A stretch of DNA of 64,000 nt. It comes from Pedosphaera sp. GTDB lineage: Bacteria; Verrucomicrobiota; Verrucomicrobiia; Limisphaerales; SIBH01. Within the stretch, counting starts at the first letter, position 1; the number at the start of each line of letters is the position of its first letter. The position numbers and the translations under genes are program-made. The notes beneath the pieces were generated by a model, which saw nothing but the letters and a program-made list of their open reading frames with translations, was not told the origin of the DNA and made no database searches. Positions 7,084-56,623 of the stretch are shown here, in pieces. The stretch lies in assembly GCA_031414955.1 (NCBI GenBank), contig JANOQV010000012.1, positions 31,100 through 95,099 of the forward strand, written 5' to 3'.

Positions 7084-10000
7084 CTACGCCAGCACGTCCG
7101 CCAGGAATCGACCAGTGTGCGAGCCTTTGGTCCGCGCCACCTGCTCCGGCGTGCCCTGCGCCACCAGCGTGCCGCCGGCTTCGCCCGCCTCGGGACCGAG
7201 ATCGATCACCCAGTCGGCCTCGGCGATGAGGTCGAGGTTATGCTCGATGACGATGACGGAGTGTCCGGCCTCGACGAGCCGCTGAATCATTTCCACCAAT
7301 CGCCGCACATCGGCCATGTGCAATCCGATGGTGGGTTCCTCGAGGATGAACAGGTTGCGCTTCTGCTTGGGGTCGAACAGCGTGGGTTGCCTGAGTCCGG
7401 TGAGCAGATGCGTGACGAGCTTGACCCGCTGCGCCTCACCACCGCTCAAGGTCGGGCTGGTCTGGCCGAGTTGGAGGTAGCCCAACCCCGTGTCGCGCAA
7501 CGCCTCGATGGGCCGTTTGATTTTCGGGAAGCTCGCGAAGAACTCGATGGCTTCCTCGACCGCCAGATCCAGCACCTGCGCGATGTTCCGGCCCTTGTAT
7601 TCGATGTCGAGGGTCTCGCGATTGAACCGGCTCCCGCCGCACGTCTCGCAACGCACGTAAGCCGGCGGCAGGAAGTTCATCTCCAGCTTGATCTGGCCCG
7701 CGCCCTCGCATTCGGGGCAACGACCCTGCGCGCTGTTGAAGGAAAATCTTCCCGGCCCGTAGCCGCGCATCCGGGCCTCGGGCGTCTGGGCGAAGAGCGC
7801 GCGGATGTCGTCGAAGAAACCGACATAGGTCGCCGGCGTGGAGCGTGGCGTGCGTCCGATGGGCGATTGATCGACTTCATAGACTGCGGCGATTTGCTCG
7901 TGACCAGAAACAATCTCGCCCGAAGGCGGCCCGACCTTGGACGCTCGCTCGCGCTTTATCGGAGTTGGACCTTGGCCCTTGGACCGCTTCAGCTTCCCCA
8001 GGAGCGTGGGCAACAAACACTCCCGGATAAGCGTGCTCTTGCCCGAGCCGCTCACGCCGGTCACCACCACGAAGCGATTCAGGGGAAACTCGACGGTGAG
8101 GTTTTTGAGATTGTGAACGGACGCGCCGCGCAGCACCAACGTGCCCCCGGCGTCCCGCCGGGTCGGGGCGCTCTCCGTCCGGGCAGTCCTCCTGGGCTTG
8201 AGCACGGAACCCGGCGGGACGCCGGGGGCACGTTGCACTGACCGCCTCTCCCCGCGCGCCGGATACTGCTTATGTTCCCGCAGGCAGCGCCCCGTGATGG
8301 AGTCCTCTTGCCGCAACAACTCGGCCAGCGTTCCAGCCGCGACAACCACGCCGCCTTGCACGCCGGCACCGGGGCCAAGGTCCACGATGAAATCCGCGCG
8401 ACGCATGGTCGCTTCATCATGTTCGACGACCACGAGCGAATTGCCGCGCGCCCGCAACTGCTCCAGGGTGGCGATAAGCTGCTCATTGTCGCGCGCGTGC
8501 AGGCCGATGGTCGGCTCGTCGAGCACGTAGAGCACGCCGCAGAGGTTGGAACCAAGCTGGGCCGCAAGCCGGATGCGCTGGGCTTCCCCGCTGGAGAGCG
8601 TGGTCACGCTGCGACCCAGTTGCAGATAACCCAGACCCACTTCGAACAGAAACTTCAGCCGCTCGGAAATTTCCGGAATCATGTCGCGAGCGATGAGCGC
8701 CTCGCGTCCGCTGAACTGGAGCGTGCGGAAAAACTGCGCGGCCTGCGCCACCGACAGTTGAGCGACCGAATCGATAGTGGGCGGCTTTGGACCTTGGACG
8801 CTCGCTCGCGATTTATCGGAGTTGGACCTTGGACCCACACAATCAAGCCGCACCGCGCGCGCGATCTCGTTCAGCCGCCCGCCGTGGCACGTCGGGCACT
8901 CCTCGCGCTTGCCTTCCTGCCATCCAAACCATGACTCCTCGATGGCATCGGCCCGCGCGCCCCGCTCCACGTCTGGGAGGTAGAACAACTCGCCAAAGCC
9001 GCGGCATTGGGGACACCAGCCCTGCGACGAGTTGTAGCTGAACATCTTCGGGTCGAGCGGCTGAAAGGAGCGCCCGCACTGACCGCAGGCGCGCTCGGTC
9101 GAATGCACGCTCACATGCTGCTGGTCGTCCACCGCGAGCAAAGTGCCGTGGCCGAGGTCGAGCGTGGTGTCGATAAGTTGTTGCGGGGTGCGCTGGCCGG
9201 GCGCGGTGTTCTCACCGCGCCGGGCGGCGGACGACGTTCGCGGCGCGCTGAGGACAGCGCGCCCTACCTTGCGAGGTTTTGCTTCCAGCACCCCGGTCAC
9301 GATCTCCACATCGTGCTCCTTGAAACGGTCGAGACGCAAAGGCTTGTCGGTGCGGACCAGTTTTCCGTCGGCGCGAACTTCGGCGTAGCCGTGCTTCGCG
9401 GCCCACTCGGCGACGTCGGTATGGAAGCCCTTGCGGTTCTTGACCACGGGCGCGAGCAGCAGCAAATCACCGCGTTGCTTCATCTCCTTTTGCAACTGCG
9501 CCCGCAACTGGTCCCGGGTCTGCGGCTCCACCGGAATCTGGCAGGCCGGACAATACTGAGTGCCGAGCCGGGCCATGAGCAGGCGAATGAAATGATAAAC
9601 CTCGGTGACGGTGGCGACCGTGCTCTTGCCGCCGCCGCGCGTGGTGCGCTGCTCGATGCTGACCGCGGGCGGGAGGCCGGTGATGAGATCCACATCCGGC
9701 CGCGCCATCTGTTCCACAAACTGCCGCGCGTAGGCGTTCATGGAATCGAGAAAGCGCCGCTGCCCTTCGGCGAACAGCAAGTCGAAGGCGAGCGTGCTTT
9801 TGCCCGAGCCGCTTACGCCGGTGATGACGACAAACTTCCCGCGCGGGATGTCGAGCGAGATGTTCTTCAAGTTATGCTGGCGCGCGCCCAGGATGCGGAT
9901 GACATCCGGGCTGGCAACGAGAGTCAGAGGCGTGGGCGCGACGTTCACGGCGGGAGGAGTAACATGAGTCGGTCGAAACGCCAAAATTGAAACCCCGCCT

Positions 10001-20653: not shown

Positions 20654-21430
20654 ATGGCTGCAACCGTTATTCGCCCGCCCCCGGCCCCCGCCCTGGTGCG
20701 GGAGTTTTTCGCCGCGCTCGGCGAAGGCACGCCCTGGTTCCAGCTCTTCGACCATCTGCCGCGCGTTTACCTCTTCGTGAAGGATGCGCGCGGCCGCTTC
20801 ATGAAGGTGAACCGGGCCGAGCTTGATCTGCATGGCTGCCGGCAGGAGTCCGAGATGCTGGGCCGGACCGACTACGACTTCCATCCGCCGGCCATGGCCG
20901 CGCAATACGTGGAGGAGGATCAGCGCGTGATGAAGTCCCGCCGCCAGCTCCGGGACCAGGTCTGGCTGGTCATGGGCCATGACCGGATGCCGCGCTGGTA
21001 TTTAAGCACCAAGATTCCGCTCCTGGGCCGCGACGGGAAGCCCGTCGGCATCGCGGGTGTGATGCGACCCTACGACCACACCGGAGTCTCCCCGGCGGAT
21101 TACAATCGCCTCACGCCCGTCATGGAATACGTCCTGGCCCATTACGGCAAACGCATCGAGGTGGCCCAGCTCGCCGCGCGCGCCCACGTCTCGGTCAGCC
21201 AGTTGCAACGTGAATTCCAGAAACTCTTTGGCCTGACGCCCGGCGATTACCTCCTGAAGGTCCGCCTGCTCATGGCCCGGCGGCGGTTGGAGGAAGGAGA
21301 CGAGGCGGTCGGGGCCATCGCCCTCGACTGCGGCTTCTACGACCAAAGCCATTTCAACCGCGCCTTCCGCTCCCTGGTCGGCCTGCCGCCCAGTGATTAC
21401 CGGCGGAGGTTCCGGCGCACCAGCCGCTGA
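20654..21430 (+). CDS. AraC-family transcriptional regulator with an N-terminal PAS-like sensor domain
   Basis: C-terminal 'VSVSQLQREFQKLFGLTPGDYLLKVRL..A..L......IALDCGFYDQSHFNRAFRSLVGLPPSDYRR' is a canonical AraC HTH pair. The N-terminal 'VKDARGRFMKVNRAELDLHG' is PAS-like. Confidence 0.8.
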   Translation: MAATVIRPPPAPALVREFFAALGEGTPWFQLFDHLPRVYLFVKDARGRFMKVNRAELDLHGCRQESEMLGRTDYDFHPPAMAAQYVEEDQRVMKSRRQLRDQVWLVMGHDRMPRWYLSTKIPLLGRDGKPVGIAGVMRPYDHTGVSPADYNRLTPVMEYVLAHYGKRIEVAQLAARAHVSVSQLQREFQKLFGLTPGDYLLKVRLLMARRRLEEGDEAVGAIALDCGFYDQSHFNRAFRSLVGLPPSDYRRRFRRTSR

Positions 21431-22235: not shown

Positions 22236-24497
22236 TCAGGCGGGCGGTTCTGAGTCGAGCTGCTGTCGCAACTCGGCGAGACCGCGGCGCAAGTCCGCCG
22301 CGGTCTGGTGGCGTCTCGCGGGGTTGGCGTCGCACGCCTGGAGCACGATCCGGTTGAGTCCATACAGCACGTTGCCGCCGGGATTCGCGATCATGTCCGT
22401 GGGCAGTTCGGGGTAATGAGCCACCGCCAGTCCGAAACCGATCTCGTAGATGAGTTTGCCCAGGCTGTAGATGTCCGCCATCGGCGTGCCCGGCCCTTCT
22501 GGCGCGATGTAGCCCTTGGTGCCGAGGTAGGTGACGCTGGCGCCGCCCGTGGCGGCATCCGTGACCAGCCCGATGTCGGCAAACTTGGCGATGCCTTGCA
22601 CAAAAATGATGTTCGCCGGTTTGATGTCACGATGAATGAGCTTGTGCCTGTGCAGGTGATGCAGCGCATCGGCCAGGTGCATCGCGATGTCCAGGCACTC
22701 CGCCAAGGGGAGCCGCTGGCGCCGGCGCAATTCGCTCTTGAGCGTTTTTGCGGCGTAGGATTCGGGATTGATTTGCTGGCCCTGGGTTTCGTCGTCGCCC
22801 AGTTCCATCACGTAGTAGATGTAATCATCACGAACGCTGCGCCCGACGTGGAGGACGTGGACGAAACCGGGATGCGTTCGCGAAATTGGTGTGAAGCGGC
22901 TGATGCCCCGGAACTCCCGTTCGTACGGGCCCGCGTCCTGGAACACCTTCCGGTGAACGATCTTGACCGCGTGGTAGCTGCCGATGATGTCGCGCGCCAG
23001 CCACACTTCGCCATAAGCCCCCTTGCCGATGGGGCGCAGCATTTCGTGATCAGGGACGCTCGGCACCAGATCGTCCGGCTCGGGAAGAATCACCGTGCGC
23101 TCGGGCGCGACCCACGCCGCGCTGGCCGGAGCCAACGCTGGTCCGGCACTGCCCGGAGCTGGGGATCTTCCAGCCGGCGAATTCGCACCACCGCCCAAGG
23201 CGACTTCTTGTTCGAGCAGATTCATTTCCCGCTGCAATCGCCGCGTATGAATGACCACGGACCATCCGACCGCGCAGGGGATTTGCACGGCCGCGGGGAT
23301 CAGCCAGGGGAACCAGACCTGCGTGGTCAAAACGCTGATAATTCCGCCGACCGCGACGCAGCAGGCGAACACCATCCCGACCCAGACTGAGGTCAGCGGG
23401 CGCAAGGAGGTGAAATAAATTCCCACGATCGCTCCGAACAACATCACCAAGGGCAGCTCGACGAAGGGAGACAGCCGCGAGAGCGATTCGCCGCGCGCCA
23501 GGTTCAGATACGCTGTGGCGTTGACCTCGACTCCGGGCGCCTTGCGGCCGGTCCACAAGGTGTGCGGAATGCGGAAATCGTCGGTGCCCTTTCCGCCCGT
23601 AAAACCAACGCTCCACAAGGCGCCGACGAACACGACCTTGTTCGAAAAAGCCGCCACCACGTCGAAATCTTTCTCGAACACGTCCGCGTACGACTTGTGC
23701 GGCAGGTAGCCGGGCGGACCATAAAAGTTGACCCAGTGCCGCGCGAAGGGATCGCCGTCCAATTTTCCATGCGCCAGTTCCGCCGCGCGCCAGGCGAGGC
23801 TGGGGATTTGGAACACCGTGTCGCGATAATGTTCGCGCACGGCTTTGCTCGCGTCGCTGGCCTCGCTCATTCCCCAGGCGCTCACGGCGGCGAGTTCGTC
23901 GAAGGGCTTGATGATCTCGGAGCCGATGATTTCGCCGGCATGGACCCGGAAACCGTTGATGGCCGCCACCACGACTTTGCCATTCTCCCGCGCGGCCGCG
24001 GCGAGTTCGCGATTGGCCACCAGGTTGGTGTCTGCGCCGAACACCACGTCGAACACCACGGCCTTCGCTCCCGCCCCGGTGAGCCTCCGAATCAGCCGCG
24101 CATGCACCGTCCGATCCCATCTGTCCCATCGGCCCTGGCCCAGCGCCGCTTCGGAATGCTCGTCCATGTAGAGCACCACCACTTCATTCACCGGGACGGT
24201 CGCGCGAAAATAAAAAGGCAGGTCATAGCTGTAATTCGCCGGCCCTTGCAGGAAAGGAAGCGTGAGAAAGCACAGGCCGAGCAGGGCGGGAAAGGCGGCG
24301 GCGGTGGCCGGGGCGAGCCACTTGCGTCCGGCCCGGGAATCAAACATGCGCTGGAGCTGTGGTGATGAACCCTGGGGCCGGTCCGCCCCGGCGGGCTGGC
24401 CCGGTCGTTCCTTCTGAATGGGGCTTTGCAGGTTCACAATCGCGCGGCTGTCGATGAGCCGGATACGTCCGCAGTTTGAACCGCGGTCCCGGCGCAA
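22236..24497 (-). CDS. CHASE2 sensor-domain transmembrane Ser/Thr protein kinase
   Basis: N-terminal TM segment, then a periplasmic CHASE2-like region ('VVVLYMDE..', 'VVFDVVF', 'KVVFVGA') and a cluster of TM helices. The Hanks kinase carries 'GKGAYGEVWLA', 'HAVKIV', 'HRDIKPANIIF', 'DIGLV', 'GTKGYIAPE'. An alternative start is the Met at 24347. Confidence 0.85.
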   Translation of the reverse strand: MRRDRGSNCGRIRLIDSRAIVNLQSPIQKERPGQPAGADRPQGSSPQLQRMFDSRAGRKWLAPATAAAFPALLGLCFLTLPFLQGPANYSYDLPFYFRATVPVNEVVVLYMDEHSEAALGQGRWDRWDRTVHARLIRRLTGAGAKAVVFDVVFGADTNLVANRELAAAARENGKVVVAAINGFRVHAGEIIGSEIIKPFDELAAVSAWGMSEASDASKAVREHYRDTVFQIPSLAWRAAELAHGKLDGDPFARHWVNFYGPPGYLPHKSYADVFEKDFDVVAAFSNKVVFVGALWSVGFTGGKGTDDFRIPHTLWTGRKAPGVEVNATAYLNLARGESLSRLSPFVELPLVMLFGAIVGIYFTSLRPLTSVWVGMVFACCVAVGGIISVLTTQVWFPWLIPAAVQIPCAVGWSVVIHTRRLQREMNLLEQEVALGGGANSPAGRSPAPGSAGPALAPASAAWVAPERTVILPEPDDLVPSVPDHEMLRPIGKGAYGEVWLARDIIGSYHAVKIVHRKVFQDAGPYEREFRGISRFTPISRTHPGFVHVLHVGRSVRDDYIYYVMELGDDETQGQQINPESYAAKTLKSELRRRQRLPLAECLDIAMHLADALHHLHRHKLIHRDIKPANIIFVQGIAKFADIGLVTDAATGGASVTYLGTKGYIAPEGPGTPMADIYSLGKLIYEIGFGLAVAHYPELPTDMIANPGGNVLYGLNRIVLQACDANPARRHQTAADLRRGLAELRQQLDSEPPA

Positions 24498-27500: not shown

Positions 27501-28317
27501 CTTGCGCCGTGGCCGCTTCGCCATTCGTCAGCGTGAGCGGCGGCCCAAACTGATTCGTCATCACGAGGCTGCCGTCGATCAGCGTCACCCGCGTGGCGTC
27601 ATTGTCATCCACCTCGATCACGAATTCCGTGCCGAGAATGGCCGCGTAGGCGGAAGGTGTCTGCACCGGCAACGTGCCCGGCTCGTCGCGGTGAAAGTAG
27701 TAGAGCAGGCCGCGCAGCAACTGGACGCCGCCGCCCTTCTCCTCGGGAATGCGAACGAAGCTCAGCGGACCGAGGCGCAGCGTGCTGTGATCGGAGAGTT
27801 GCACCACGGCGCGGCTGCGTTCCATCGTGCGCAGACTGTCCCCGGGGAACAGCACCTGATTGGTGTAGCCCGGATCCCGGGCCGGGGAGTTGCCGCGCGA
27901 GACGAATATTTTCCCTTCAAAGCCCAGCAGCACCGCCTCCGTTTTCTGCGCCGCGCCCGCCGTGGTTCCGATCCCGCCCAGGACGATGGCCCACAGCGCC
28001 AGCGCGAAGCCAATGTAACGCCGCGTTATTCTCCCTCTCCCCTCACCGGGGAGAGGGCCGGGGTGAGGGGTGAGAATGGCAGTGGGCGGTGGTTGGCAAA
28101 CGACAGTGCTCGGACGATCCCACCCCTCACCCTCAATCCCTCTCCCCGTTGAGGAGAGAGGGAAGCCCGCCACGGACGCGCTCTTCATGGAAAGAGAGCC
28201 ATCCTCCTGAGTGTGCGGCAAGCTGCGCCGGCTTTCGCCGCGAGCCTCCCCAGCCGCGCCAACACTTCTGCTCCGCTGTTTCGAGGAAGGTTCAAGTTCA
28301 CATTTCATGCGTGTCAT
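24508..28317 (-). CDS. FecR-domain + TPR-repeat + C-terminal outer-membrane beta-barrel protein
   Basis: Hydrophobic segment 'YIGFALALWAIVLGGIGTTAGAAQ'. FecR-like block 'KIFVSRGNSPARDPGYTNQVLFPGDSLRT..AVVQLSDHSTLRLGPLSFVRI'. TPR-like helices run to about aa 700. A Gly/Tyr/aromatic-rich strand pattern follows, ending '...TYVARLKFNF'. The N-terminal ~95 aa are repeat-derived, so the true start is uncertain. Confidence 0.7.
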   Translation of the reverse strand: MTRMKCELEPSSKQRSRSVGAAGEARGESRRSLPHTQEDGSLSMKSASVAGFPLSSTGRGIEGEGWDRPSTVVCQPPPTAILTPHPGPLPGEGRGRITRRYIGFALALWAIVLGGIGTTAGAAQKTEAVLLGFEGKIFVSRGNSPARDPGYTNQVLFPGDSLRTMERSRAVVQLSDHSTLRLGPLSFVRIPEEKGGGVQLLRGLLYYFHRDEPGTLPVQTPSAYAAILGTEFVIEVDDNDATRVTLIDGSLVMTNQFGPPLTLTNGEAATAQVNSAPVKVPALEAVNVIQWVLYYPGVLDLEELPLTPAEAQALEASLAAYRSGDLIAAVTNYPANRQPASDAEKVYLAALDLAVGEVGLAQAALNTIPDVNSPAASIARALRTVMAAIQLRPHPGPLPQEREQGAAGTATKLLAESYFAQSRGELKEALEFARRATGVSPGFSFAWARVAELEFSFGRTTPAREAVEKSLSLAPRNAHAVALRGFLFAADNRTREAIAAFDEAIVLNSAMGNAWLGRGLCRIRRGDLAGGREDLQVAATVEPQRAIFRSYLGKAFSNERDVLRARKELHLAQSLDPNDPTAWLYSALLNRDVNRINEGVRDLEHARELNENRRVFRPRLTLDQDLAVQAVNLAGLYDDAGMLEVSAREAGRAVEADPANYSTHLFLAETYERRRDPARISQRFETAAVTEYLLANLLAPIGAGTLAQSVTQNEYSKLFERDGLGVSSSTEYYSRGAWWQSGAQYGSVENFSYAVSAFYNSDQGQRASNDLEQNELSLQLKYQITPEDSLYFHAVRSEIEGGDLLTRQDPASANRTLRVEERQEPLLLAGWQHKWAPGVHTLALVGWLQDEMMVKNGQQQTLLLGKDSGGKVTDAVPILIEQKYATDLGLFTAELQQLWQTENHAFIVGGRYQAGQFETRSEQMNAQVPPPIPGFVSALFPTGRESVDSQMERASGYGYYHWRPVTPLLLVAGVSYDWLRYPVNFRYAPLGAGEDETDQISPKGGLIWTPTDRTTLRAAYSQSLGGVGFDQSFRLEPTQVAGFNQAFRSIIPESIAGANSAASFENWGASIEQRFGKGTYVGLSGEWLRSELERDFGVYDFLPSFQVARSSTRQRLDYQERTVALTLNQLVADDWSLGVRYRVSYAELESHFRDIPGNALTALDFHSRTKSDALLHQVNLFAIFNHRSGFFSQAEALWNGQINGGAGAGTDDEFWQFNLYAGWRGFQRRFEVRVGVLNLTGEDYRLSPLNLTAELPRERTYVARLKFNF
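27109..27145. repeat. 'CTCTCC..GGAGAG-GGCCGGGGTGAGG' hairpin repeat in frame inside the TPR region of the FecR-barrel gene
   Basis: CTCCCTCTCC-TGG-GGGAGAGGGCCGGGGTGAGGGCGC. Encodes ...RPHPGPLPQEREQGA... The same family occurs at 28031-28164. Confidence 0.75.
28031..28164. repeat. Composite palindromic repeat (two inverted copies of the 'GGGAGAGGGCCGGGGTGAGGGG' family) within the 5' end of the FecR-barrel ORF
   Basis: CTCCCTCTCCCCTCACCGGGGAGAGGGCCGGGGTGAGGGGTGAG ... CCCACCCCTCACCCTCAATCCCTCTCCCCGTTGAGGAGAGAGGGAAG. Encodes ...GIEGEGWDRP...TPHPGPLPGEGRGRI... upstream of the only hydrophobic segment. Confidence 0.8.
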
Positions 28318-28326
28318 CTCGCCAGG

Positions 28327-28354
28327 GATACGTATGGGACCCGTCGAGTTTTAA
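28327..28354 (-). promoter_or_regulatory. Weaker copy of the same bipartite motif facing the FecR-barrel/kinase/sigma operon: TTAAAA-N16-CGTATC
   Basis: The minus strand reads GAAAGATTAAAAC-TCGACGGGTCCCATA-CGTATCCC. It has one mismatch in the -35-like hexamer and the same 16-nt spacing. It lies only ~10 nt from the first ATG of the ORF, so it would imply a downstream start. Confidence 0.25.
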
Positions 28355-28372
28355 TCTTTCTGCAACTTTGTG

Positions 28373-28408
28373 AAGATTTTTTCAAAAAGGCCCGGCCGGT
28401 TGCGTGTT
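28373..28408 (+). promoter_or_regulatory. Candidate ECF-type promoter, distal copy upstream of RCC1 paralogue 1: AAGATTTTTTCAAA-N16-CGTGTT
   Basis: TTCAAA at 28381-28386, an exactly 16-nt spacer, CGTGTT at 28403-28408. One of five co-oriented copies of the same bipartite motif. Confidence 0.4.
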
Positions 28409-28440
28409 CATGCCAGTGCAGGCAGCCGCGCAAATTGTTT

Positions 28441-28700
28441 TCAGCCGCTCTGGTCCACCGCCGAGACGGGAAGAGCGCAGAGGTTTTCCGGCCGGGATCT
28501 CTGTACTGCAATCCATCCGAATCCTCGTGCGCCGCGAGGATTTCTGCCCGCCTGATCCACCGCCGAGGCGGGAAGGGCGCAGAGACAGCGCGTTCGGAAA
28601 GCTCTGCCCCCTTCCCGCCTCTGCGGTGGATCAGCCCGTTCCCTTTGGTTGCGGCTCCGCCGCGCTGTGTCCTTCCCGTCTCTGTGGTGCCACCGGGTGG
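28441..28700. repeat. Cluster of four ~35-nt GC-rich repeats (family 'CTCTGCGCCCTTCCCGCCTCGGCGGTGGATCAG'), two forming a long hairpin
   Basis: GATCCACCGCCGAGGCGGGAAGGGCGCAGAG (about 28552-28582) and CTCTGCCCCCTTCCCGCCTCTGCGGTGGATC (about 28600-28630) are inverted. Further copies lie near 28450 and 28665, and at 34845-34935 upstream of paralogue 2. Confidence 0.75.
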
Positions 28701-28745
28701 ATCGTTTGGTTGCGGCTTGGCCGCTCCGTGTCCAGCCGTGGTTAA

Positions 28746-28781
28746 AAGATATTTTCAAAAAGGCCCGGCCCGTTGCGTATT
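28746..28781 (+). promoter_or_regulatory. Candidate ECF-type promoter, proximal copy upstream of RCC1 paralogue 1: AAGATATTTTCAAA-N16-CGTATT
   Basis: TTCAAA at 28754-28759, 16-nt spacer, CGTATT at 28776-28781. About 110 nt upstream of the ATG at 28892. Confidence 0.45.
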
Positions 28782-28891
28782 GCTCTGTAGAGATGGACAG
28801 GATGTGTTATGACAGGACCCGAATTGCCCAGGTCATCCGGCGACGAGGCGCAGCTTTGTCCGCGAATGACACCCCGGCGGCTACTTGACGA

Positions 28892-31800
28892 ATGAAATTT
28901 TGCTTCACAGTTTGCGGTGATCCAAGGCGGCGGTGGCGTGGCCCTGCGGCCCTGCGGCGGTGGCGGCTTCTTCTGCTGCTGGGGTCCGCGCTCCTCCTCC
29001 TGTGCGCCTGGCTCGGAATGGGCACCGCTTATGCCGCTACTCCCGGCGCGGTGCTGGGGTGGGGAATCTCCTCCCAAAGTTACATGCCCCTCGCGACGCA
29101 GAGTGGGGTGGTGGCCGTTGCGGCGGGACAGTATCGCGCGGTGGCCTTGAAGACCGACGGGAGCTTGCTGGCGTGGACACCCTTCGCCTACGAGGTAACG
29201 ACCGTGCCCGTGGAGGCGCAGAGCGGGGTGATGGCCATTGCAGCGGGAGGGGATAACATCGTGGCCTTGAAGACCAACGGGAGCGTGCTGGAGTGGCTGG
29301 TGTGGGGAGACAACTGGTCCGTCCAAACGGTGCCCGTGGAGGCGCAGAGCGGGGTGACGGCCATTGCAGCGGGAAGCTTTCACGCCGCGGCCTTGAAGAC
29401 CAACGGGAGCGTGGTGGCGTGGGGATCCACCGTCCACGGCCAAACGACGGTACCGGTCACGGCGCAGAGCGGAGTGATAGCGATTGCAGCGGGAGGTTCT
29501 CACACCGTGGCCTTGAAGTATGACGGGAGCGTGGTGGCGTGGGGTTATAACGCCTACGGCCAAACCAATGTGCCCGTGGCCGCGCAAAGCGGGGTGGCGG
29601 CCATTGCGGCGGGAAAATATCACACCGTAGCCTTGAAGTATGACGGGAGCGTGGTGGCGTGGGGAGACAACGGCTTCGGCCAAACGACGGTGCCCGCGGC
29701 GGCGCAGAGTGGAGTGATGGCCATTGCAGCCGGATACGGACACACCGTGGCCTTGAAGACCAACGGGAGCGTGCTGGCGTGGGGAGACAACTGGGCCGGC
29801 CAAACGACGGTGCCCGTGGCGGCGCAGAGTGGAGTGACGGCGATCGCGGCGGGAGAGGGACATACCGTGGCGCTCGTCATCCCGACTCCCCCCACCATCA
29901 CCACTCAACCCGTGAGCCTGACGGTGAACGCGGGGCAGAGCGCGAGCTTCACCGTGGTGGCCACGGGTTTTCCCTTGAACTACCAATGGTTCAAGGACGG
30001 AACCAATCTCAACGGGGTAACGAGCCACGGCCACGGCTTGGACCACGCATCGTTCAATGACGCGGGAAGCTACACCGTGGTGGTGACCAACTCTGTCGGG
30101 AGCGTGACGAGCGCGCCACCGGCGGTGCTGACGGTGAACGCGGCGCTTCCCGGCGCGGTGGTGGAGTGGGGAGTCAACTTCTCGGGCCAAGTGAATGTGC
30201 CTGTGGCGGCGCAGAGCGGGGTGACCGCCATTGCGGCGGGAGAGTATCACACGGTGGCCTTGAAGACCGACGGGAGCGTGCTGGCGTGGGGACAAAACGA
30301 CGTTGGCCAAACGACCATTCCCGTTGAGGCCCAGAGCGGGGTGATGGCCATCGCCGCGGGAGAGATACATACCGTGGCGCTGAAGAATGACGGAAGCGTG
30401 GTGGCGTGGGGAGACAACGCGGAAGACCAAACGACCGTGCCCCTGGCGGCCCAGAGTGGAGTGACGGCCATTGCGGCGGGAGCATATCACACCGTGGCCT
30501 TAAAGAACGACGGAAGCGTGGTGGCCTGGGGATACGCCGGCATCGTAACGACGGTGCCCGTGATGGCGCAGAGCGGGGTGACGGCCATCGCGGCGGGAGG
30601 CTATCACACCGTCGCCTTGAAGAATGACGGAAGCGTGGTGGCGTGGGGAGACAACTGGGCTGGCCAAACGATCGTGCCCGTTGCAGCGCAGAGCGGGGTG
30701 ATGGCCGTTGCGGCAGGAAACTCCCACACCGTGGCCTTGAAGACTGACGGGAGCGTGCTGGCGTGGGGAGACGGCTCTTACGGCCAAATGAATGTGCCTG
30801 TGCCGGCACAAAGCGGAGTGACGGCCATTGCGGCGGGATATGGCCACACCGTGGCCTTGAAGAACGACGGGAGCGTGATGGTCTGGGGCCGCAACGACTA
30901 CGGCCAAGCAACGGTGCCCGTGGCGGCGCAGAGCAGAGTGACGGCCATTGCGGCGAGAGGTGGTCACACCGTGGCGCTGCTCGGAGATGGGAGGCCGGTG
31001 GTGACCGTGCCACCGGTGGAACAAACCGCGCTCCTCGGTAACACCTTCCGCCTGGCGGCCATGGTCGTGGGCAACGGGCCGTTGTTTTATCAGTGGCGCT
31101 TCAACGGAGTGGACATCGCCGGAGCGACCAATGCCCTGCTCGAACTTCTCAACGTGCAAACCAATCAGGCGGGTGGTTACACGTTCGTCGTGACCAATGC
31201 CCTCGGCGCGGTAACGGGCGCGGTGGCGCAAGTGACAGTTCTCGTTCCGGCGCACGTTGATCCCTTGCCGCCGAGCACCACGGTGTTGCTTGGCTCCAAC
31301 GTGACGCTGTCTGCGAATGCGGAGGGCACGCCGCCGCTGCGGTATCAGTGGCGCAAGAACGGGGCGAACATTCCGGGAGCCACGAACAGCAACTACACCA
31401 TCACCAACGTCCAGGTCAGCGATGGCGGCGCGTACACGGTGGTGGTGCAGAACGATTACGGCACAGCCACCAGCGACCCGACGCTGCTCATCGTCCAAGT
31501 GCCGCCCCAGGCTCCGGGCGATAATTTCGCCAACCGAGTCGCGATCATCGGCACCAACGGGGTGGTCGGGGGCACGAACCGTTTCGCGACCAAGGAAGCG
31601 GGCGAACCCAACCACGGCGGCAAGGCGGGCAGCAATTCAGTCTGGTACACCTGGCAGGCGCCGAGCAACGGCATCGCCACCTTCCGCACCCAGGGCAGCG
31701 TGTTCGACACCCTGCTCGGCGTTTACACCGGCGGCACCGTTTCCAATCTCACGACGGTCGCCAGCGACGAAGATCTCGGCGGCTTCTTCACCAGCGAAGT

Positions 31801-33149: not shown

Positions 33150-33432
33150 CAGTTGAGTTGGCCGGTGGCGTTGGCCTCCGCGGTGCCTCCAAGCCCTGTC
33201 CGACCTCCCGCCGCCCCATGCTTCGCGCGAGCGTCTTGGAGTGCGGTAGCCCTCTACCGCTTTCCCCCTGACGGGGGATGAGTCCGAGAGCGAAGTTCTG
33301 CCCGCCGTCCTTTTCACACGCGCGGTCAAAGCGCCAGAGGACTGGCGCACTCCAAGCCCTGGCGGCCCTCCCAGCGCCCCGTGCTTCGCGGAGCGTCTTG
33401 GACTGCAGTAGCCCTCTACCGCTTTTCGTTCG
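33150..33432. repeat. Two tandem copies of a ~120-150-nt intergenic repeat (family '...GCTTCGCG.GAGCGTCTTGGA.TGC.GTAGCCCTCTACCGCTTT')
   Basis: 33205-33265 and 33375-33425 align nearly base for base. They generate the spurious minus-strand ORFs with 'GLPHSKTLAR' / 'LLQSKTLREA' and 'SAPVLWRF' peptides. Confidence 0.8.
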
Positions 33433-33614: not shown

Positions 33615-33899
33615 ATGGAACATGTCATCGAACAGCCTCGCAAGCGGATCACGGCCCGCGTTTCGGACACGGTGCGCGTGACGCTGGAACAGGCGGCGGA
33701 GCTTTTGGGTTCGACCGTCAACCAGTTCGTCGTGCAAACGGCGTATCAGGAAGCGCAGCGCGTGGTGGAGCGTGAGACGGTCATCCGGCTGTCGCAGAAA
33801 GACGCGCGGAAGGTTCTTTCCCTGCTCGACCATCCGCCCAAACCCAACCAGCGTCTCAAGGACGCGGTAAAAGAATTCAAAGGCACGGTGCGTGCGTAA
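33615..33899 (+). CDS. DUF1778-family (TacA/KacA-type, RHH) antitoxin
   Basis: 'RKRITARVSDTVRVTLEQAAELLGSTVNQFVVQTAYQEAQRVVERE..I.LS..D....L..L..PP.PN..L..A' matches the DUF1778 antitoxin pattern. It overlaps the downstream toxin gene by 8 nt. The Met at 33615 gives the usual ~94 aa. Confidence 0.85.
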   Translation: MEHVIEQPRKRITARVSDTVRVTLEQAAELLGSTVNQFVVQTAYQEAQRVVERETVIRLSQKDARKVLSLLDHPPKPNQRLKDAVKEFKGTVRA

Positions 33900-34404
33900 A
33901 ATCGAACGGCTGGCCAAGTCTCACGACCGGGACGGATTCGACTGCGGGAGTGAACCGCTCAATCTGTTTCTGAGGCAAACCGCACGCCAACACGCGGAAC
34001 GGGGAATCTCGCGGACCTTCGTTCTCGTGGACGGGGACGCTGCCGCACCCAAACCCATTTTGGGTTTCTTCTCCCTCAACATCTGTCAGATAAAATCGGA
34101 ATCCCTTTCAGCGGAAGAAGCGAAGAAGCTGCCGCGTGACGTGTCCGGGATAAGGCTTGGCCGGCTGGCCGTCTCGAAAGCATTCCAGCGGCAAGGCATC
34201 GGGAAAACCCTGCTGGTCGCGGCCATGGGGAAATTCATCGAGATTTTCAACACGGCGGGCGGGATTGGACTTTTCGTGGACGCGAAAGACCAGGAAGCCA
34301 AACGCTACTACGAGCAATTTGGTTTTGTTTCCCTGCCGTCGAACGAATTGGAACTGTTCCTGCCGGTCAAAACGATTCAAGAGGCATGGACCTCGCACCC
34401 GTAA
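33892..34404 (+). CDS. GNAT-family acetyltransferase toxin (TacT/KacT/AtaT-type)
   Basis: GTG start. 'FDCGSEPLNLFLRQTARQHAERGISRTFVLVD', 'GRLAVSKAFQRQGIGKTLLVAAM' (acetyl-CoA P-loop-like Q/RxxGxG) and 'VDAKDQEAKRYYEQFGF' are hallmarks of GNAT toxins paired with DUF1778. Confidence 0.85.
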   Translation: MRKIERLAKSHDRDGFDCGSEPLNLFLRQTARQHAERGISRTFVLVDGDAAAPKPILGFFSLNICQIKSESLSAEEAKKLPRDVSGIRLGRLAVSKAFQRQGIGKTLLVAAMGKFIEIFNTAGGIGLFVDAKDQEAKRYYEQFGFVSLPSNELELFLPVKTIQEAWTSHP

Positions 34405-34772: not shown

Positions 34773-34808
34773 AAGATTTTTTCAAAAAGGCCCGGCCCGT
34801 TGCGTGTT
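34773..34808 (+). promoter_or_regulatory. Candidate ECF-type promoter, distal copy upstream of RCC1 paralogue 2
   Basis: TTCAAA at 34781-34786, 16-nt spacer, CGTGTT at 34803-34808. The surrounding ~125 nt are almost identical to 28372-28495. Confidence 0.4.
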
Positions 34809-34943
34809 CATGCCAGTGCAGGCAGCCGCGCAAATTGTTTTCAGCCGCTCTGGTCCACCGCAGAGACGGGAAGAGCGCAGAGGTTTTCCGGCCGGCGATC
34901 TCGGTGTCCTTCTCGTCTCTGCGGTGCCAGAACGCGCCCGGCG

Positions 34944-34979
34944 AAGATTTTTTCAAAAAGGCCCGGCCCGTTGCGTATT
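34944..34979 (+). promoter_or_regulatory. Candidate ECF-type promoter, proximal copy upstream of RCC1 paralogue 2
   Basis: TTCAAA at 34952-34957, 16-nt spacer, CGTATT at 34974-34979. About 105 nt upstream of the ATG at 35084. Confidence 0.45.
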
Positions 34980-35083
34980 GCTCTGTAGAGATGGACAGGA
35001 TGTGCTATGACAGAACCCGAATTGCCCAGGTCATCCGGCGGCGTGGCGCGGCTGCGGATGACACCACGGCGGCTCCTTGGCGA

Positions 35084-38000
35084 ATGATTTTTTATATCAC
35101 AGTTTGTGGTGATCCGAGGCGGCGGTGGCTGTTAACCCTGCTGCTTTTGTGCGCTGCGCTCCCTGGCCCGGCGACGCACGGCGCGGGTTCCTTGCTGTCG
35201 TGGGGTTTGAACAACGCCGGCCAGACCAATGTGCCGGCGGGCCTGACCAATGTTGTGGCCGTGGCGGCGGGCCAGAACCACAGCCTGGCCTTGAGGGACG
35301 ACGGCACCGTGGTGGCGTGGGGCAGCAATGCCACCGGCCAGACCAACCTTCCTCCGGGGCTGGATGGAGTGAGCGCCATGGCCTCCGGACTCTTCCACAA
35401 CCTCGCCGTGCGCGCCGATGGCACTGTCGTGGCGTGGGGCCAGAACATCTATGGCCAGACCAATGTCCCGGCCGGGCTGCAAAATGTCGTCGCGGTGGCG
35501 GCTGGCACCCGACATAGCCTGGCCTTGCGGGCGGATGGCACCGTCGCCGGCTGGGGCACGAATGAGGACGGCCAGATCACCATCCCGCCCAACCTCACCA
35601 ACGCCCTGGCCATCGCCGCCGGGGCTTATCACAGCCTGGCGCTCCGCCGCGACGGCACCGTCGTGGCCTGGGGCCGGACGAACTACTTGCAGACGGCGGT
35701 CCCGGCCTCGGCCACGAACATCCTCGCCCTCGCCGCCGGCGGAGATCACTCCCTCGCCCTGCGCGCGGACGGCCAGGTGATCGCCTGGGGTTACAGCGTC
35801 TCCGGCCTGACCAACGTGCCGGTCGATCTCACCAATGCCGTGGGCGTTGCGGCGGGATACTATTTCAACAGCGCCCTGCGCGCGGATGGCCGAGTGGTGG
35901 CCTGGGGTGCCAACAACTCCGGCCAGACCAACGTGCCGCCGGGCATGACGAACGTGGTAGCGCTGGCCGCGGGTTACGGTCACGCCTTGGCTCTGCGCGA
36001 TTCAGATTTTGTCGTGTCCTCTGCGCCAAGGATTCTAACCCAGCCGCACGCACGGACCATCTACAGCGGCACTACCGTCACGCTGGACGTGCTCGCCATC
36101 GCTCCCGATCCAATCGCCTATCAGTGGCAATTCGGGGAGACGAATCTGGCCGGGGCGACGAATGCGTCGCTCGTTTTGGAGAACGTGCAGTTCGCGCAGG
36201 CGGGACTGTATCGTGTGGTGGTCAGCAGCAGCGGTGGAGTTGCTGTGAGCATCGACTCCTTGCTTTCGGTGGTTGGCGCCGGCCCGATCATCGTCAGCGG
36301 ACCATCGAATGTGGTGACGCTTGCTGGTTCGACTGCGGAGTTCCACGTCACTGCGGACGGATCAGAACCCTTCAGCTACCAATGGCAGTTCAATGGTGCG
36401 GACATCAGTGGGGCCACCAGCAGCAGTTTGTTTCTCTCGAATATCCAACTGGCTGACCAGGGCGGGTACCGCTGCGTCGTCAGCAACGCCTTCGGCGTCA
36501 TCACCAGTTCGGCGGCGATCTTGATCGCACCGGCGCTCGTCATCGCGTCGCAGCCTCAAAGCCAGACTGTCTTGGCGCTGGCCAGCGTCACCTTCAGCAT
36601 CGTCGCCGTTGGCTCTGGCCCCTTCACCTACCAGTGGCGGAGATCCGGCATCAGCCTGACGGAGGGCGGCTGGATTCTGGGGGCGCAGACGGCCACGCTG
36701 ACCTTGTCCAATGTTCTGCCCGCCGACGCGGGCAGTTACTCGGTGACGGTGCATAATGCCTTTGGCACCGCGTCCAGTTCCAACGCTTGGTTGGCGGTGG
36801 TGCCACTGGTGGCTTGGGGCACCAATTCATTCGGGCAAACCAGCATTCCACTGAGTCTCACCAACGTGACGGCGGTGGCTGCGGGCGCCTATCATAATCT
36901 GGGGCTGAAGGCAGACGGGACAGTAGTCGCTTGGGGGCAGAACTCTTCCGGTCAGATCAATGTTCCACCGAGCTTATCCAATGTGGAGGCCGTCGCGGCA
37001 GGAGTCGCTTGGAGCCTGGCTCTGCGCGGCAATGGAACGGTGATGGCGTGGGGATCTGGTATTCAGACCAATGCTCCGTCCGCGCTGTCGAACGTGATCG
37101 CGATCGCGGCTGGCGGCTTTCATGGTCTGGCCTTGAAACAGAACGGCACCGTGGTGGCCTGGGGCCAGAACACCGAGGGCCAGACCAATGTGCCTCCCGG
37201 CCTGTCGAACGTGATTGCGATTGCGGCCGGACAATCCCATAGCCTGGCCTTGAAGGCGGACGGTCGGGTCGTCGCCTGGGGCTGGAACACCTGGGGCCAG
37301 ACGAACGTGCCGCCGGGGCTTTCAAACGTGGTCGCGATTGCAGCGGGCATGTTCTACAGCCTGGCCTTGAAAGACAACGGGACCGTGGCGGCCTGGGGTT
37401 CCAACTCCCTTCCCAGCGGATTAAGCAACGTCGTGGCCATCGCGGCAGGTGCGGCAGGTGCGCCCGATCACGGTCTCGCACTCACGGACGACGACACGTT
37501 GCTACGGTGGGGAAACACTTGCTGTGGCCTGACGAACATTCCGTCTGGCCTGACCGGCATCGCCGCTGTCGCGGCGGGTGCCAACCATGACCTGGCTCTC
37601 GTGTTTGGCTCATTGGCCGTGAACCCGATAACTCCTGGTGCCGTGGTGGCCTGGGGAAACAACAACTACGGCCAAACGACGGTGCCCGTGGCAGCGCAGA
37701 GCGGAGTGGTGGCCATTGCGGCGGGAGGTTCTGAATACGGTGGTCACACCGTGGCCTTGAAGACCGACGGCAGCGTGGTGGCGTGGGGAGAAAACGACTA
37801 CGGCCAGACGACGGTGCCCGTGGCGGCGCAGAGCGGAGTGACGGCCATTGCGGCGGGAGCTGGTCACACTGTGGCCTTGAAGAACGACGGGAGCGTGCTG
37901 GCGTGGGGACGCAACTTCGAAGGCCAAACGAACGTGCCCGTGGCGGCACAGAGCGGAGTGACGGCCATTGCGGCGGGACGTGTTTATACCGTGGCCCTAA

Positions 38001-41716: not shown

Positions 41717-41831
41717 TCTTGCGTTCCCTTCCCGCCGCGGAAGCCGTGTTCATGCTGTTGGAATTTCAACGCCAAGACGCTGGGGAAAACTGACTGATGG
41801 GGGATGGGTTCCAGCAGCGACGGCAAAAATC

Positions 41832-41944
41832 CCGGAGTGCGCCCGTCCTCGGGCGCAGCAATGCTCGCAGGGTGGCAAAGTCTCGAAAACCTGGCTTCTT
41901 TCCGCGCGAGGACATCGCTGCGCCCGAGGACGGGCGCACTCCGG
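41832..41944. repeat. ~113-nt inverted-repeat element, same family as 13965-14075
   Basis: CCGGAGTGCGCCCGTCCTCGGGCGCAGC (41832-41859) and GCTGCGCCCGAGGACGGGCGCACTCCGG (41917-41944) are perfect reverse complements with a 57-nt spacer. The pair is nested inside a second, weaker inverted repeat (TTTCAACGCCAAGACGC near 41765 and GCGCCTTGGCGTTAAAC near 42005). Confidence 0.85.
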
Positions 41945-42069
41945 GTGAGTTCTGCAATCGCGTCTCCAACTTTCCATTTCCGCCTGGCGTCTTCGCGGCT
42001 TTGCGCCTTGGCGTTAAACAACTTGGCCCTCAACCGCATGGATACGGTCCAGAGCCGAAACTCGAGCAA

Positions 42070-42105
42070 AAGATATTTTCAAATAACGCCTCCCTCCTGC
42101 GTATC
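42070..42105 (+). promoter_or_regulatory. Candidate ECF-type promoter upstream of the FHA gene: AAGATATTTTCAAA-N16-CGTATC
   Basis: TTCAAA at 42078-42083, a 16-nt spacer of completely different sequence (TAACGCCTCCCTCCTG), CGTATC at 42100-42105. Both half-sites and the spacing are conserved while the spacer is not. Confidence 0.45.
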
Positions 42106-51794: not shown

Positions 51795-54700
51795 CTAGGG
51801 CACCATCAATTCGTAGAAGACGGTATTGGTGCCAGCGAGCGAGTTCGTCACGGTGACCGATCCGAAGAAGTTGGTGTAAACATTCGTCCAGAGCGTGCTC
51901 GCGGCCGGGCTTCTCAGGCCGATGCTGCGCCGAAGGATGACGGTGGCATTGCTGCCACAAGTATTTATGACTGGATTGCTCCAGTTCAGCACACCTCGGG
52001 TGGTGCCATTGCTGTAGGTGATGCTAGTCCGCAGACCGTTGGTACCGAGCTTGAAGCCAGTCTGCCAGGCGATGTTCGTGCATATCACTCCTCCATTCGT
52101 CACGGTCAACACCGCCACGCTGCTGGTGGCGCTGCTGAAGGAGTTGTTGGCCCGCATCACATAGTTGGAAATGTTCGCGGTCGTGAGGTTCGGGATGACC
52201 AGCAGGCTGTTGGTCTCGCCGGAAAGAATAGCACCATTCTTGTACCACTGAAGGGTGATAGGCAGCGTGCCGGTGGCAGTAGAGCGGAAGAACGCGGTCG
52301 AAGCCACGCCATTCGTGCGACTGCGCGGATGCTCCACGATCCGCACCGGAATCGGCGTGGGCAACGGCCCGGAAGCAACGGTGGCAGTCATCTCCAGACC
52401 AAAAACCACATCGGAACTGGCGGCACCACTCTGGTGGACTTCCGCAGCAAAGACGTTGGTGCCGGGCAGCAAGGTGACGATCAAATCGACTGGTCCCACA
52501 ATGACGGCATCACCAACGGCTGCAATGCCCTGACTGGCGGCGGTCATCTGGCCGGCCGGCATGTTGAAGCGGTAGATTTCAGCCCCGTTCAGGTAGAGAA
52601 CCAGACCGTCGTCAACGATATGGCGGAGACGCAGCACGGTGTTCGCACCGCCGATCACGGCCGTGTATTTTTGGCGGAAATAGAATGTGTTGTAGCGGTT
52701 GCCAACTCCATCAGCCAAGGCCAGCGGGGTATTCTTGGCCGCTGGCAAAGGCGCGCCTTCCACGTAAAACAAGGCGTTGCTCGGCCCCGACCAGGTCGAG
52801 TCATCGAAAGAAGGAGTGAAGTAGGAGGCGTGGATTTCCTCGTTGGTGTTCACGAGCAGGTACTTCCAAGCGTTGGTGAAGGAGGCCACCTGCAAGACCG
52901 CGCCGACAGTGACTGAACTGTTGGGCGCGATGGGGTTGGCCCGGCTGGAGGCATCGGTCAGGTTGTTCACCACCACCATGTAGGCACCAACCGGGAGCGG
53001 GCTGGCAAAGTTCAGGACGACGTTGGAGCCATTCAGGACGGCGCTGGAGACGGGGAAGGTTCCGCCTACAATGTTGGTGACAAGATAGTTCACAACGAGT
53101 TGCGCCGGGGTCGCGGCCATTCGCTTACTGAAACCAAGCTGAATGGAAGTGCTGGAGACCAGAGAGCCGGACAGAAGAACGGGCGCGTTGGAATCAGTGA
53201 TGACATACAATCGAGCCACGATACTGGTGGCGCTGCCAGAGGCTGGGTTGCTCACGATGGCGCGGAATTGCCAGCCTGCCATGTTGGTCGAGACGTTCGC
53301 GATGGTGTAGTTGGCCGCAGCGGCCCCGGCCACATTCACGTTATTGGTCTGCCATTGATAGGACACTCCCGCGACAGAGAAGACCTGGAAGGTGGCGGAC
53401 TGGCCTTCGACCACGGTTTGATCAAACGGGCCATTCAAGACCTGCACCGGGCCGTTGGTGAAGGACTCCACGAAAGCATCCAGTTGCAGGCCAAATTCCT
53501 TGTCGATGTCGTTGATTTGTGGCTGATGCACCTCAACGGCGATCACGTTGCTGCCAACCTGATAGGAGGGAAGGGCGATGGAAATTGGTCCAATGCGGCT
53601 CGAATCACCCACCACTGCAGACGGCAGAGTCAAATAGTTGATCGCACCCGTGGGCATATTAAAGCGAAGAAATTCGCTCCCGTTCATCCAGAAAACGGCA
53701 CCATCGTCCAAAATGTGAGTGACGGCGAAATTCAGGTTGCCGGGGCTGGCCTGTAGGTTGAATCCACCCCGGAAGTAGGAGGTAATGCTCGGCGCTTCCG
53801 ACAAGGGCGTGCCGCCAGGGCCAGGAAGGTTATCTGCCGGTGAAACGTAAAACACACCGAAGCCAGGACTCATATATTGCTCATCCGGGTAACTGAAATC
53901 CTTCCAAGCGGTCCCCAAATCGGGCCCAATGACATCGAAAGGGGGGAATGGATCCAGGACGTTCCAAGCCGCAAGCGGATTGTTCAAACCACCCAAAGCC
54001 TTGGTCAGCACCTTCATGGTGATGGGCATCATGCTGTTCGGGGCGATGAGATTGGTGGCCGGGGAAGTATCGCGGACGTTGTTCACGATCAGAACGTAGT
54101 TGTTATTGACGAGGCGCGGGGCGGTCGTGGTGAGCAGGACGTTGCTACCATTAACCCGAACCGCACTGGAGACGGTGAGCATTCCGCCGAGAGTGTTGGT
54201 GATTTTGTAATAGGCAGCATTGGTGGCGGTGGAGGCCAGCACTAGTTCAGAGTAACCAACCAGCACCTGGGAGTTGGTGGCGGTACCGTCCGCCATGACC
54301 AGCAGGGGCCGGTTGGTGTCAACGATGACTCCCAAAGTGACCACGCTGCTGGTGACGCTGTTCACGGTATTGCTGGCCACGACGAAGTAACTTCCCACGT
54401 CGTTGGTGGTCGCCGACGCGATGATCAACGGATTTTGGGTGGCGTTGGAGACAGCCACGCCATCCTTGTACCACTGGTAGTAGGCGGGTTGGCCCTGGAG
54501 CCCAAGAGTGAAGTCGGCGATCTTGGTTTCCTCGACCACCAAATTTTGCGGCTGGCTGGTGATGGCGAGGAGACTGGGATTGTAAAAGTTGACGTTCACC
54601 TGCATACCGAAGTCAACGTCACTGCTGGTGTTGTTCACCTGGTGGACTTCCACCGCCAAGGTGTTGGTGCCCTGAATCAGGAGAGATGAAGGGATGTTGG

Positions 54701-56303: not shown

Positions 56304-56554
56304 AAAGGTGTAGGGTTTTTGATTCACGAGACACGCCGTTGTCGCATCGAAATTGAGTTTGCACTTCATGGGTTGTTTCAGAAGTGCAACAAGGAATCAC
56401 GGTTGGCCCTCTTTGGCAACAGTGAAAACAGGCGGCGCGATTATTTTTTGAGGTATTTTTCCTGCCTCGCCTTGGGAGGCGGCCTCGCGCCAGTTGCGGC
56501 CCGGCGGCTGGTTCCGCCGGTAATAATTTGTCGCCGGTATCAGGGACATAAAAA

Positions 56555-56582
56555 TTGACAATGATGGCTCGATTTGTAGAGT
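56555..56582 (+). promoter_or_regulatory. Putative sigma-70-type promoter of the FecR / CHASE2-cyclase operon
   Basis: TTGACA (56555-56560), 16-nt spacer, TAGAGT (56577-56582). About 40 nt upstream of the ATG at 56624. Confidence 0.35.
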
Positions 56583-56623
56583 GCCCTCCGAACAACTTGA
56601 AACTGGCCAAGCCAGAAAATGAT

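Follow-up and report, generated by a model that had tools for sequence, protein, structure and literature searches.

Promoters of ECF sigma factors are bipartite, with a -35 and a -10 element of which the latter contains CGT, as in the TGAAAC-N16-CGTA type of Bacillus subtilis sigma-W, and an AAC core in the -35 element is common to many of them, although it is not universal. Planctomycetes and Verrucomicrobia are rich in kinase-linked ECF sigma factors; to our knowledge, experimental study of such factors is limited to the proteobacterial members of ECF43. ECF sigma factors are usually autoregulated and co-encoded with their targets, which forms the basis of promoter prediction (PMC7826278). 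Described pairs of the kinase-activated ECF43 group are EcfP/PknT (Vibrio parahaemolyticus) and EcfK/PknS (Xanthomonas citri), and ECF59, 61, 62, and 217 are predicted planctomycetal kinase-linked groups (PMC8999054, PMC7826278). ECF43-like factors are recognized by the replacement of the DAED motif of region 2.2 with uncharged residues, including a phospho-acceptor Thr (PMC8999054). A further group, ECF267 (28 sequences, 100% Proteobacteria), has a kinase gene as well as a gene for a FecR-like TPR protein in its neighborhood, and which of these partners regulates the sigma factor is unclear according to the literature (PMC7826278).

Gene content and comparison with described systems

The locus lies on a contig of Pedosphaera sp., in a stretch of 64 kb that is referred to here as the window (Table 1). 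Homologues of its FHA protein, for which no exact match is on record, carry names including "Verrucomicrobia subdivision 3," and PSCyt/PSD/DUF1501 genes are also encoded in the window; together these indicate a Verrucomicrobia-like organism. [quoted passage not shown]

Table 1. Genes, predicted promoters, and inserts of the locus, in window coordinates.
Feature	Coordinates	Strand	Remarks
ECF sigma factor, 207 aa	21601..22224	-	proposed reader of the motif
CHASE2-domain Ser/Thr protein kinase	22236..24497	-	proposed activator of the sigma factor
FecR-domain/TPR/C-terminal beta-barrel protein, 1269 aa	24508..28317	-	first gene of the three-gene operon
Sigma-operon promoter (predicted, autoregulatory)	28328..28361	-	AGA-N4-TTAAAA-N16-CGTATCC
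Target promoter copy A1 (predicted)	28373..28407	+	-35 TTCAAA 28381-28386, -10 CGTGT 28403-28407
Insert between A1 and B1	28409..28745		337 nt, nested palindromic repeats; absent from orthologs L121 and L146
Target promoter copy B1 (predicted)	28746..28780	+	-35 TTCAAA 28754-28759, -10 CGTAT 28776-28780
RCC1-repeat/Ig-domain giant, paralogue 1, 1402 aa	28892..33100	+	target gene (predicted)
Target promoter copy A2 (predicted)	34773..34807	+	duplicate of A1, 5' of RCC1 paralogue 2
Insert between A2 and B2	34809..34943		135 nt, one long palindrome
Target promoter copy B2 (predicted)	34944..34978	+	duplicate of B1, 105 nt 5' of the ATG of RCC1 paralogue 2
RCC1-repeat/Ig-domain giant, paralogue 2, 2210 aa	35084..41716	+	target gene (predicted)
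FHA gene target promoter (predicted)	42070..42104	+	61 nt 5' of the ATG; spacer unrelated to the other copies
FHA-domain protein, 147 aa	42166..42609	+	target gene (predicted)

Similar to ECF43, a Ser/Thr kinase adjoins the sigma gene in all of the loci examined, and a classical anti-sigma gene was not seen beside the sigma gene in any of the relatives examined. The acidic DAED motif is degenerate, as it is in EcfP: region 2.2 (residues 52-55) reads (A/E)AQD instead of the canonical DAED, with the Q found in 103 of 111 homologues. The negative charge is only partly lost, however, with one acidic residue kept, and no Ser or Thr takes the place of the acidic residues, so that this sigma factor, unlike EcfP, has no counterpart to the phosphorylated position within the STTA motif and lacks the phospho-acceptor by which ECF43-like factors are recognized. 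The kinase also differs from those of ECF43 in that it carries a CHASE2 sensor domain.

The neighborhood of an ECF sigma factor, a protein kinase, and a FecR-like TPR protein resembles that of ECF267, as judged from the published description of that group only, although the lineage here is Verrucomicrobia-like and close homologues of the sigma factor also occur without a FecR-type gene. A likeness to the FecA-FecR-FecI system is also apparent, since an ECF sigma factor is encoded together with a periplasmic FecR domain and an outer-membrane beta-barrel; in this locus, however, a single protein combines the FecR domain with the TPR repeats and the barrel, and the CHASE2 kinase gene stands between the FecR-type gene and the sigma gene. 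The C-terminus of the fused protein is ...KFNF, as in outer-membrane barrels, and no cytoplasmic anti-sigma domain is evident in its 1269 aa. Elsewhere in the window, a second FecR-domain ORF (56555-57370) lies directly 5' of a gene for a CHASE2-adenylate/guanylate cyclase (57417-59792), and because of this arrangement FecR and CHASE2 evidently are a recurring pair independent of the sigma factor. The FecR domain seems to partner CHASE2 rather than to serve as an anti-sigma factor.

The motif and its consensus

A bipartite motif had been described as occurring five times in the window, and all five copies are present as exact matches to AAGATWTTTTCAAA-N16-CGTRT on the + strand, where 0.01-0.02 would be expected by chance (dinucleotide-preserving shuffles); no additional match was found in the 64-kb window at up to three mismatches. 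Two duplicated blocks hold four of these copies, so that the five repeats amount to only three independent targets in the window (type A, type B, and the FHA copy). The block at 28373-28495 is 98% identical to that at 34773-34895, and the block at 28746-28855 is 95% identical to that at 34944-35053; since both blocks repeat at such identities, the upstream regions evidently were duplicated along with the RCC1 paralogue genes. The spacer is near-identical among the four RCC1-upstream copies, of which A1 and B1 sit 484 nt 5' of the start and 111 nt 5' of the ATG of paralogue 1, respectively. The preliminary description placed the conservation in the half-sites and not in a shared block; within the window this is borne out by the FHA copy alone, and orthologous loci provide independent support.

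A weaker copy on the minus strand (TTAAAA-N16-CGTATC, 28354-28328), also noted previously, is present as well, with its hexamer at 28354-28349 and CGTAT at 28332-28328, and the end of its -10 element is 10 nt from the first ATG of the long FecR-type ORF. All six sites of the window are intergenic, and each is directed at the next gene.

Alignment of 21 sites from the window and its relatives gives the consensus AGA-N4-TT(C/A/G)AAA-N16-CGTAT(C/T)C. The half-sites and spacing of the earlier motif are retained in it, but the -35 side is longer than was described, reaching to a conserved AGA 4 nt before the hexamer (positions -7 to -5 from it) that is in register in the sigma-side and target copies alike. 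The distance from hexamer to CGT, for which a fixed 16 nt had been claimed, is exactly that in 21/21 sites. The -10 element is CGTAT in 17 of the 21, the rest being CGTGT (two, the A copies), CGTAG (one), and CGTAA (one). The bipartite form, the fixed 16-nt spacer, and the CGT-containing -10 element are all like those of the sigma-W type. In contrast to that type, the -35 element here is A/T-rich (TTNAAA) and follows the conserved AGA-N4, and AAC is found only in the sigma-side copies, which read TTAAAAC or TAAAAAC; the target copies read TTCAAAAA or TTCAAATA, and AAC in register is absent from them.

The sites are also rare elsewhere in the DNA examined. A weight matrix built from 13 distinct sites recovered six sites in the window at 24.9-30.6 bits, with the next best at 13.0 bits, and the top score in 30 Markov-simulated windows was 20.6. 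A non-circular pattern defined from the window alone, TT[CA]AAA-N16-CGT[AG]T, had 10 matches in 141 kb of related loci, where 0.145 were expected (dinucleotide shuffles). All 10 are at sigma-operon or target places known from relatives, and, because L121 and L151 overlap, 8 of them are distinct; a looser pattern over 302 kb gave no matches at other places. In public genome contigs, AGATWTTTTCAAA-N16-CGTRT had at least 118 single matches, nearly all in AT-rich unrelated genomes and attributable to chance. The pattern AGATWTTTTCAAA-N14-TGCGTRT had 14 matches in metagenome contigs, mostly AT-rich, with no sign of a repeat spread; this pattern is too strict, since the TG before CGT is not conserved (L146). 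Two of the GC-richer metagenome matches, inside leuC/leuA (L132) and in a phage-like contig (L145), were inspected and appear to be chance matches.

Conservation of the sites in related loci

Homologues of the sigma factor are numerous and occur in two operon layouts, FecR-CHASE2 kinase-sigma and sigma-kinase. In every readable relative with 70-94% sigma identity, and in both layouts, TTAAAA-N16-CGTAT(C/T)C is located directly 5' of the sigma operon. Among the FecR-type operons (L121/L151, sigma 94% identical; L146, 84%), GAAAGATTAAAAC-N-CGTAT(C/T)CC faces the operon, in the form AGAAAGATTAAAAC...CGTATCCC in L121/L151 and GAAAGATTAAAAC...CGTATTCC in L146. The sigma-kinase operons (L122-127, L128/129, L149/150, and L148; sigma 70-74% identical) have (T/C)TAAAA-N16-CGTAT(C/T)C, with 15 nt from the end of the -10 element to the sigma ATG, and their remaining upstream sequence cannot be aligned to the window. 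A copy in this autoregulatory position is thus present in the window, L121/L151, L146, L122-129, and L148-150, a set that includes close relatives and represents few independent lineages (approximately the FecR-type clade, the sigma-kinase clade, and L148). In L130, whose sigma factor is 59% identical, no copy of the motif was found 5' of the FecR-type gene.

The target-side copies are likewise found at orthologous places. In L121/L151, the ortholog of the RCC1 giant is preceded by AAGATTTTTTCAAA-AAGACCCTTTCCGTTG-CGTAT, in which AAGACCCTTTCCGTTG is the spacer, and the divergent copy of L146 reads AAGATATTTTCAAA-AACATCCCCGGCGTTC-CGTAT, with AACATCCCCGGCGTTC as spacer; the RCC1 giant and the FecR-kinase-sigma operon are divergent in L121, and the P0017 contig (74%) shows the same arrangement. 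The FHA ortholog of L151 (84% identical, on the same contig as L121) is preceded by AAGATATTTTCAAA-AAGCACCTTTCCGCTG-CGTATCCCTCAGTGGCCG, which matches the FHA promoter of the window at 19/19 positions of the half-sites and at 9/16 of the spacer; the sequence 5' of AAGAT is unrelated to the window, and CCCTCAGTGGCCG after the motif is kept. Across relatives, therefore, half-sites and the 16-nt spacing are conserved, and spacers and outer flanks have diverged.

The predicted regulon had been described as two RCC1 giants and the FHA protein. These targets fit the comparative data, and the relatives, scanned with the weight matrix, add others: a phytase-like gene is preceded by the motif in L151 (8186), a Porin_5 gene by TTGAAA-N16-CGTATTC in three sigma-kinase loci (L122, L128, L148), and a divergent hypothetical/alkaline-phosphatase operon by the motif in L128 and L149. 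Just 5' of the FHA promoter of L151, after the phytase-like gene, the 3' end of an RCC1 giant gene persists as a relic (9735-9783, encoding ...QQFFRTR..PPY*), which suggests that a second RCC1 paralogue was lost or replaced in this lineage. The window encodes a further giant Ig-domain protein (1524 aa, 51795-56369, minus strand), which has no motif copy upstream.

Probable promoter function and the predicted regulon

The motif is probably a promoter read by RNA polymerase with the adjacent ECF sigma factor, which would place the genes behind it in a small, autoregulated regulon. Both parts of this reading, the ECF-type promoter and the adjacent kinase-linked sigma factor as its candidate reader, had been predicted from the window, and both agree with the comparative data, given that half-sites and spacing recur at orthologous places and that the motif accompanies the sigma factor over the range of 70-94% identity. 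The minus-strand copy would drive the FecR/TPR/barrel-kinase-sigma operon, resulting in positive autoregulation, and the + strand copies would drive the two RCC1/Ig giants and the FHA gene, with transcription predicted to start approximately 6-9 nt after CGTAT. The autoregulatory role previously proposed for the weak minus-strand copy fits its retention at the same position in relatives of two operon layouts: a motif 5' of the sigma factor's own unit in both layouts is to be expected where an ECF promoter is autoregulated (PMC7826278). The locus resembles classical autoregulated ECF systems in this respect and in the clustering of targets beside the sigma gene. It differs from the sigma-W type in that its predicted regulon, located in a Verrucomicrobia-like host, is made up of RCC1/Ig giants and an FHA protein and is unlike a cell-envelope stress set.

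An alternative that we regard as unlikely is that the sites are alternative-sigma promoters read by another sigma factor, such as an ECF paralogue encoded elsewhere, with the adjacent sigma operon as one of the targets. Verrucomicrobia-like genomes are usually rich in ECF paralogues, any one of which could share or own the specificity, and the link between the sites and the adjacent sigma factor is drawn from sequence comparison, with a view confined to 64 kb of the genome. Related modules do exist in these bacteria: at L152 (394-7337), an FHA homologue (72% identical) is encoded inside an operon with a member of another ECF sigma family (PF07638) and two Ser/Thr kinases. That locus, however, has no copy of the motif, and no second sigma gene was found in the 64-kb window. 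Furthermore, the motif tracks this sigma family across two layouts, always immediately 5' of the sigma factor's own unit, and it is gone at 59% sigma identity, as would be expected if promoter and sigma factor co-evolve.

Less probable again is that a DNA-binding regulator binds at the motif, with the true promoters located elsewhere. A candidate, the PAS-AraC protein (20654-21430), is encoded beside the sigma factor, as is a PAS/AraC-type regulator in L119, and the conserved AGA-N4 before the hexamer exceeds a classical -35 element. Yet TTCAAA and CGTAT do not repeat each other in direct or inverted orientation, the motif is kept in sigma-kinase loci that have no AraC neighbor, and a search of 28200-29000 for sigma-70-type promoters and terminators found none. 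In addition, the distal half-site of the sigma-side copies ends 10-15 nt before the start codon, which would accommodate a promoter, but not an activator site together with a separate promoter. That the copies are inert remnants without a regulatory function, left by a small mobile repeat or a segmental duplication, is very improbable: although the two duplicated blocks (95-98% identity) hold 4/5 copies and a palindromic insert lies between the A and B copies in the manner of a long target duplication, the FHA and orthologous copies keep just the half-sites and spacing while spacers and flanks diverge, all sites point at a gene, and the public metagenome and genome matches listed consist of chance hits only, with no repeat spread among them.

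Under the preferred reading, in which the adjacent sigma factor reads the sites, its activity would be switched on by the co-encoded CHASE2 Ser/Thr kinase. Control by the kinase is suggested by its presence in both layouts, in contrast to the FecR-type gene, which is absent from the sigma-kinase loci. Given this absence and the second pairing of FecR with a CHASE2-cyclase, the FecR/TPR/barrel protein would act at the envelope as a sensor partner of the CHASE2 domain, with no anti-sigma role. FHA domains bind phospho-threonine, and the FHA protein may feed back on phospho-signaling; this is speculative, and the FHA homologue within the ECF-kinase operon of L152 would fit such a role.

A more far-reaching proposal, which we put forward tentatively and consider doubtful as a whole, is that the locus represents a new layout of surface signaling, running from the FecR/TPR/barrel protein via the CHASE2 kinase and the ECF sigma factor to the RCC1/Ig giants, with feedback by the FHA protein. 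An outer-membrane FecR/TPR/barrel protein would report to the periplasmic CHASE2 domain of the kinase, and the kinase, in place of an anti-sigma factor, would activate a sigma factor whose RNA-polymerase-binding DAED motif is half-neutralized. This sigma factor would read the unusual, A/T-rich extended -35 promoter AGA-N4-TTNAAA-N16-CGTATCC; giant RCC1/Ig surface proteins would be the output, and the FHA protein, as a phospho-adaptor, would close the feedback loop on the kinase.

The more general conclusion, that the locus is an autoregulated ECF regulon of a known kind belonging to an uncharacterized kinase-linked sigma family, is supported by the sequence comparisons and is unsurprising in kind. 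What the locus supplies, namely a consensus for the promoter, a small set of predicted targets, and an argument from comparison, could be tested in a heterologous host. In the comparative argument, the kinase would be the constant partner and FecR would pair with CHASE2. The predicted promoters also give a first point of entry into the regulation of the enigmatic RCC1-repeat giants in these bacteria.

Tandem copies and palindromic inserts

In the orthologs, the RCC1 gene has one promoter only, which stands back-to-back with the sigma-side promoter, and no insert is present. In the window, it is A1 that is back-to-back with the sigma-side promoter and retains the ancestral left flank, and B1 that retains the ancestral right flank and leader. 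The A copies (-10 CGTGT) are derived, by tandem duplication of a 35-nt core around a palindromic insert. The A copies may fire or stay silent. Within the window, the palindromes (core CACCGCNGAGNCGGGAAGNGCGCAGAG) are confined to the regions 5' of the two RCC1 genes, and in the insert of paralogue 1 a second palindrome is nested within the first. The 135-nt insert has a predicted RNA fold of -69 kcal/mol (z -5); an Rfam search of the region returned no family, with only sub-threshold matches to miRNA hairpins, located at the palindromes.

Two short upstream ORFs (28809-28895, 28 codons; 35007-35087, 26 codons) overlap the RCC1 starts by ATGA. They were considered as a regulatory feature and rejected, as the peptide is not conserved in the L151 ortholog; the overlaps are probably incidental. 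Other REP-like, GC-rich palindromes are located at 28032-28163, 33235-33356, and 41831-41945 (e.g., GGAGTGCGCC...GGCGCACTCC), and the occurrence of a REP-like palindrome within the 5' part of the long FecR-type ORF casts doubt on the start codon of that gene. Between the RCC1 paralogues, a gene for a TacA-like antitoxin (33615-33899; Pfam TacA1, E 9e-24) is overlapped by a downstream ORF (33892-34404) whose product has, by eye, the look of a GNAT-type toxin.
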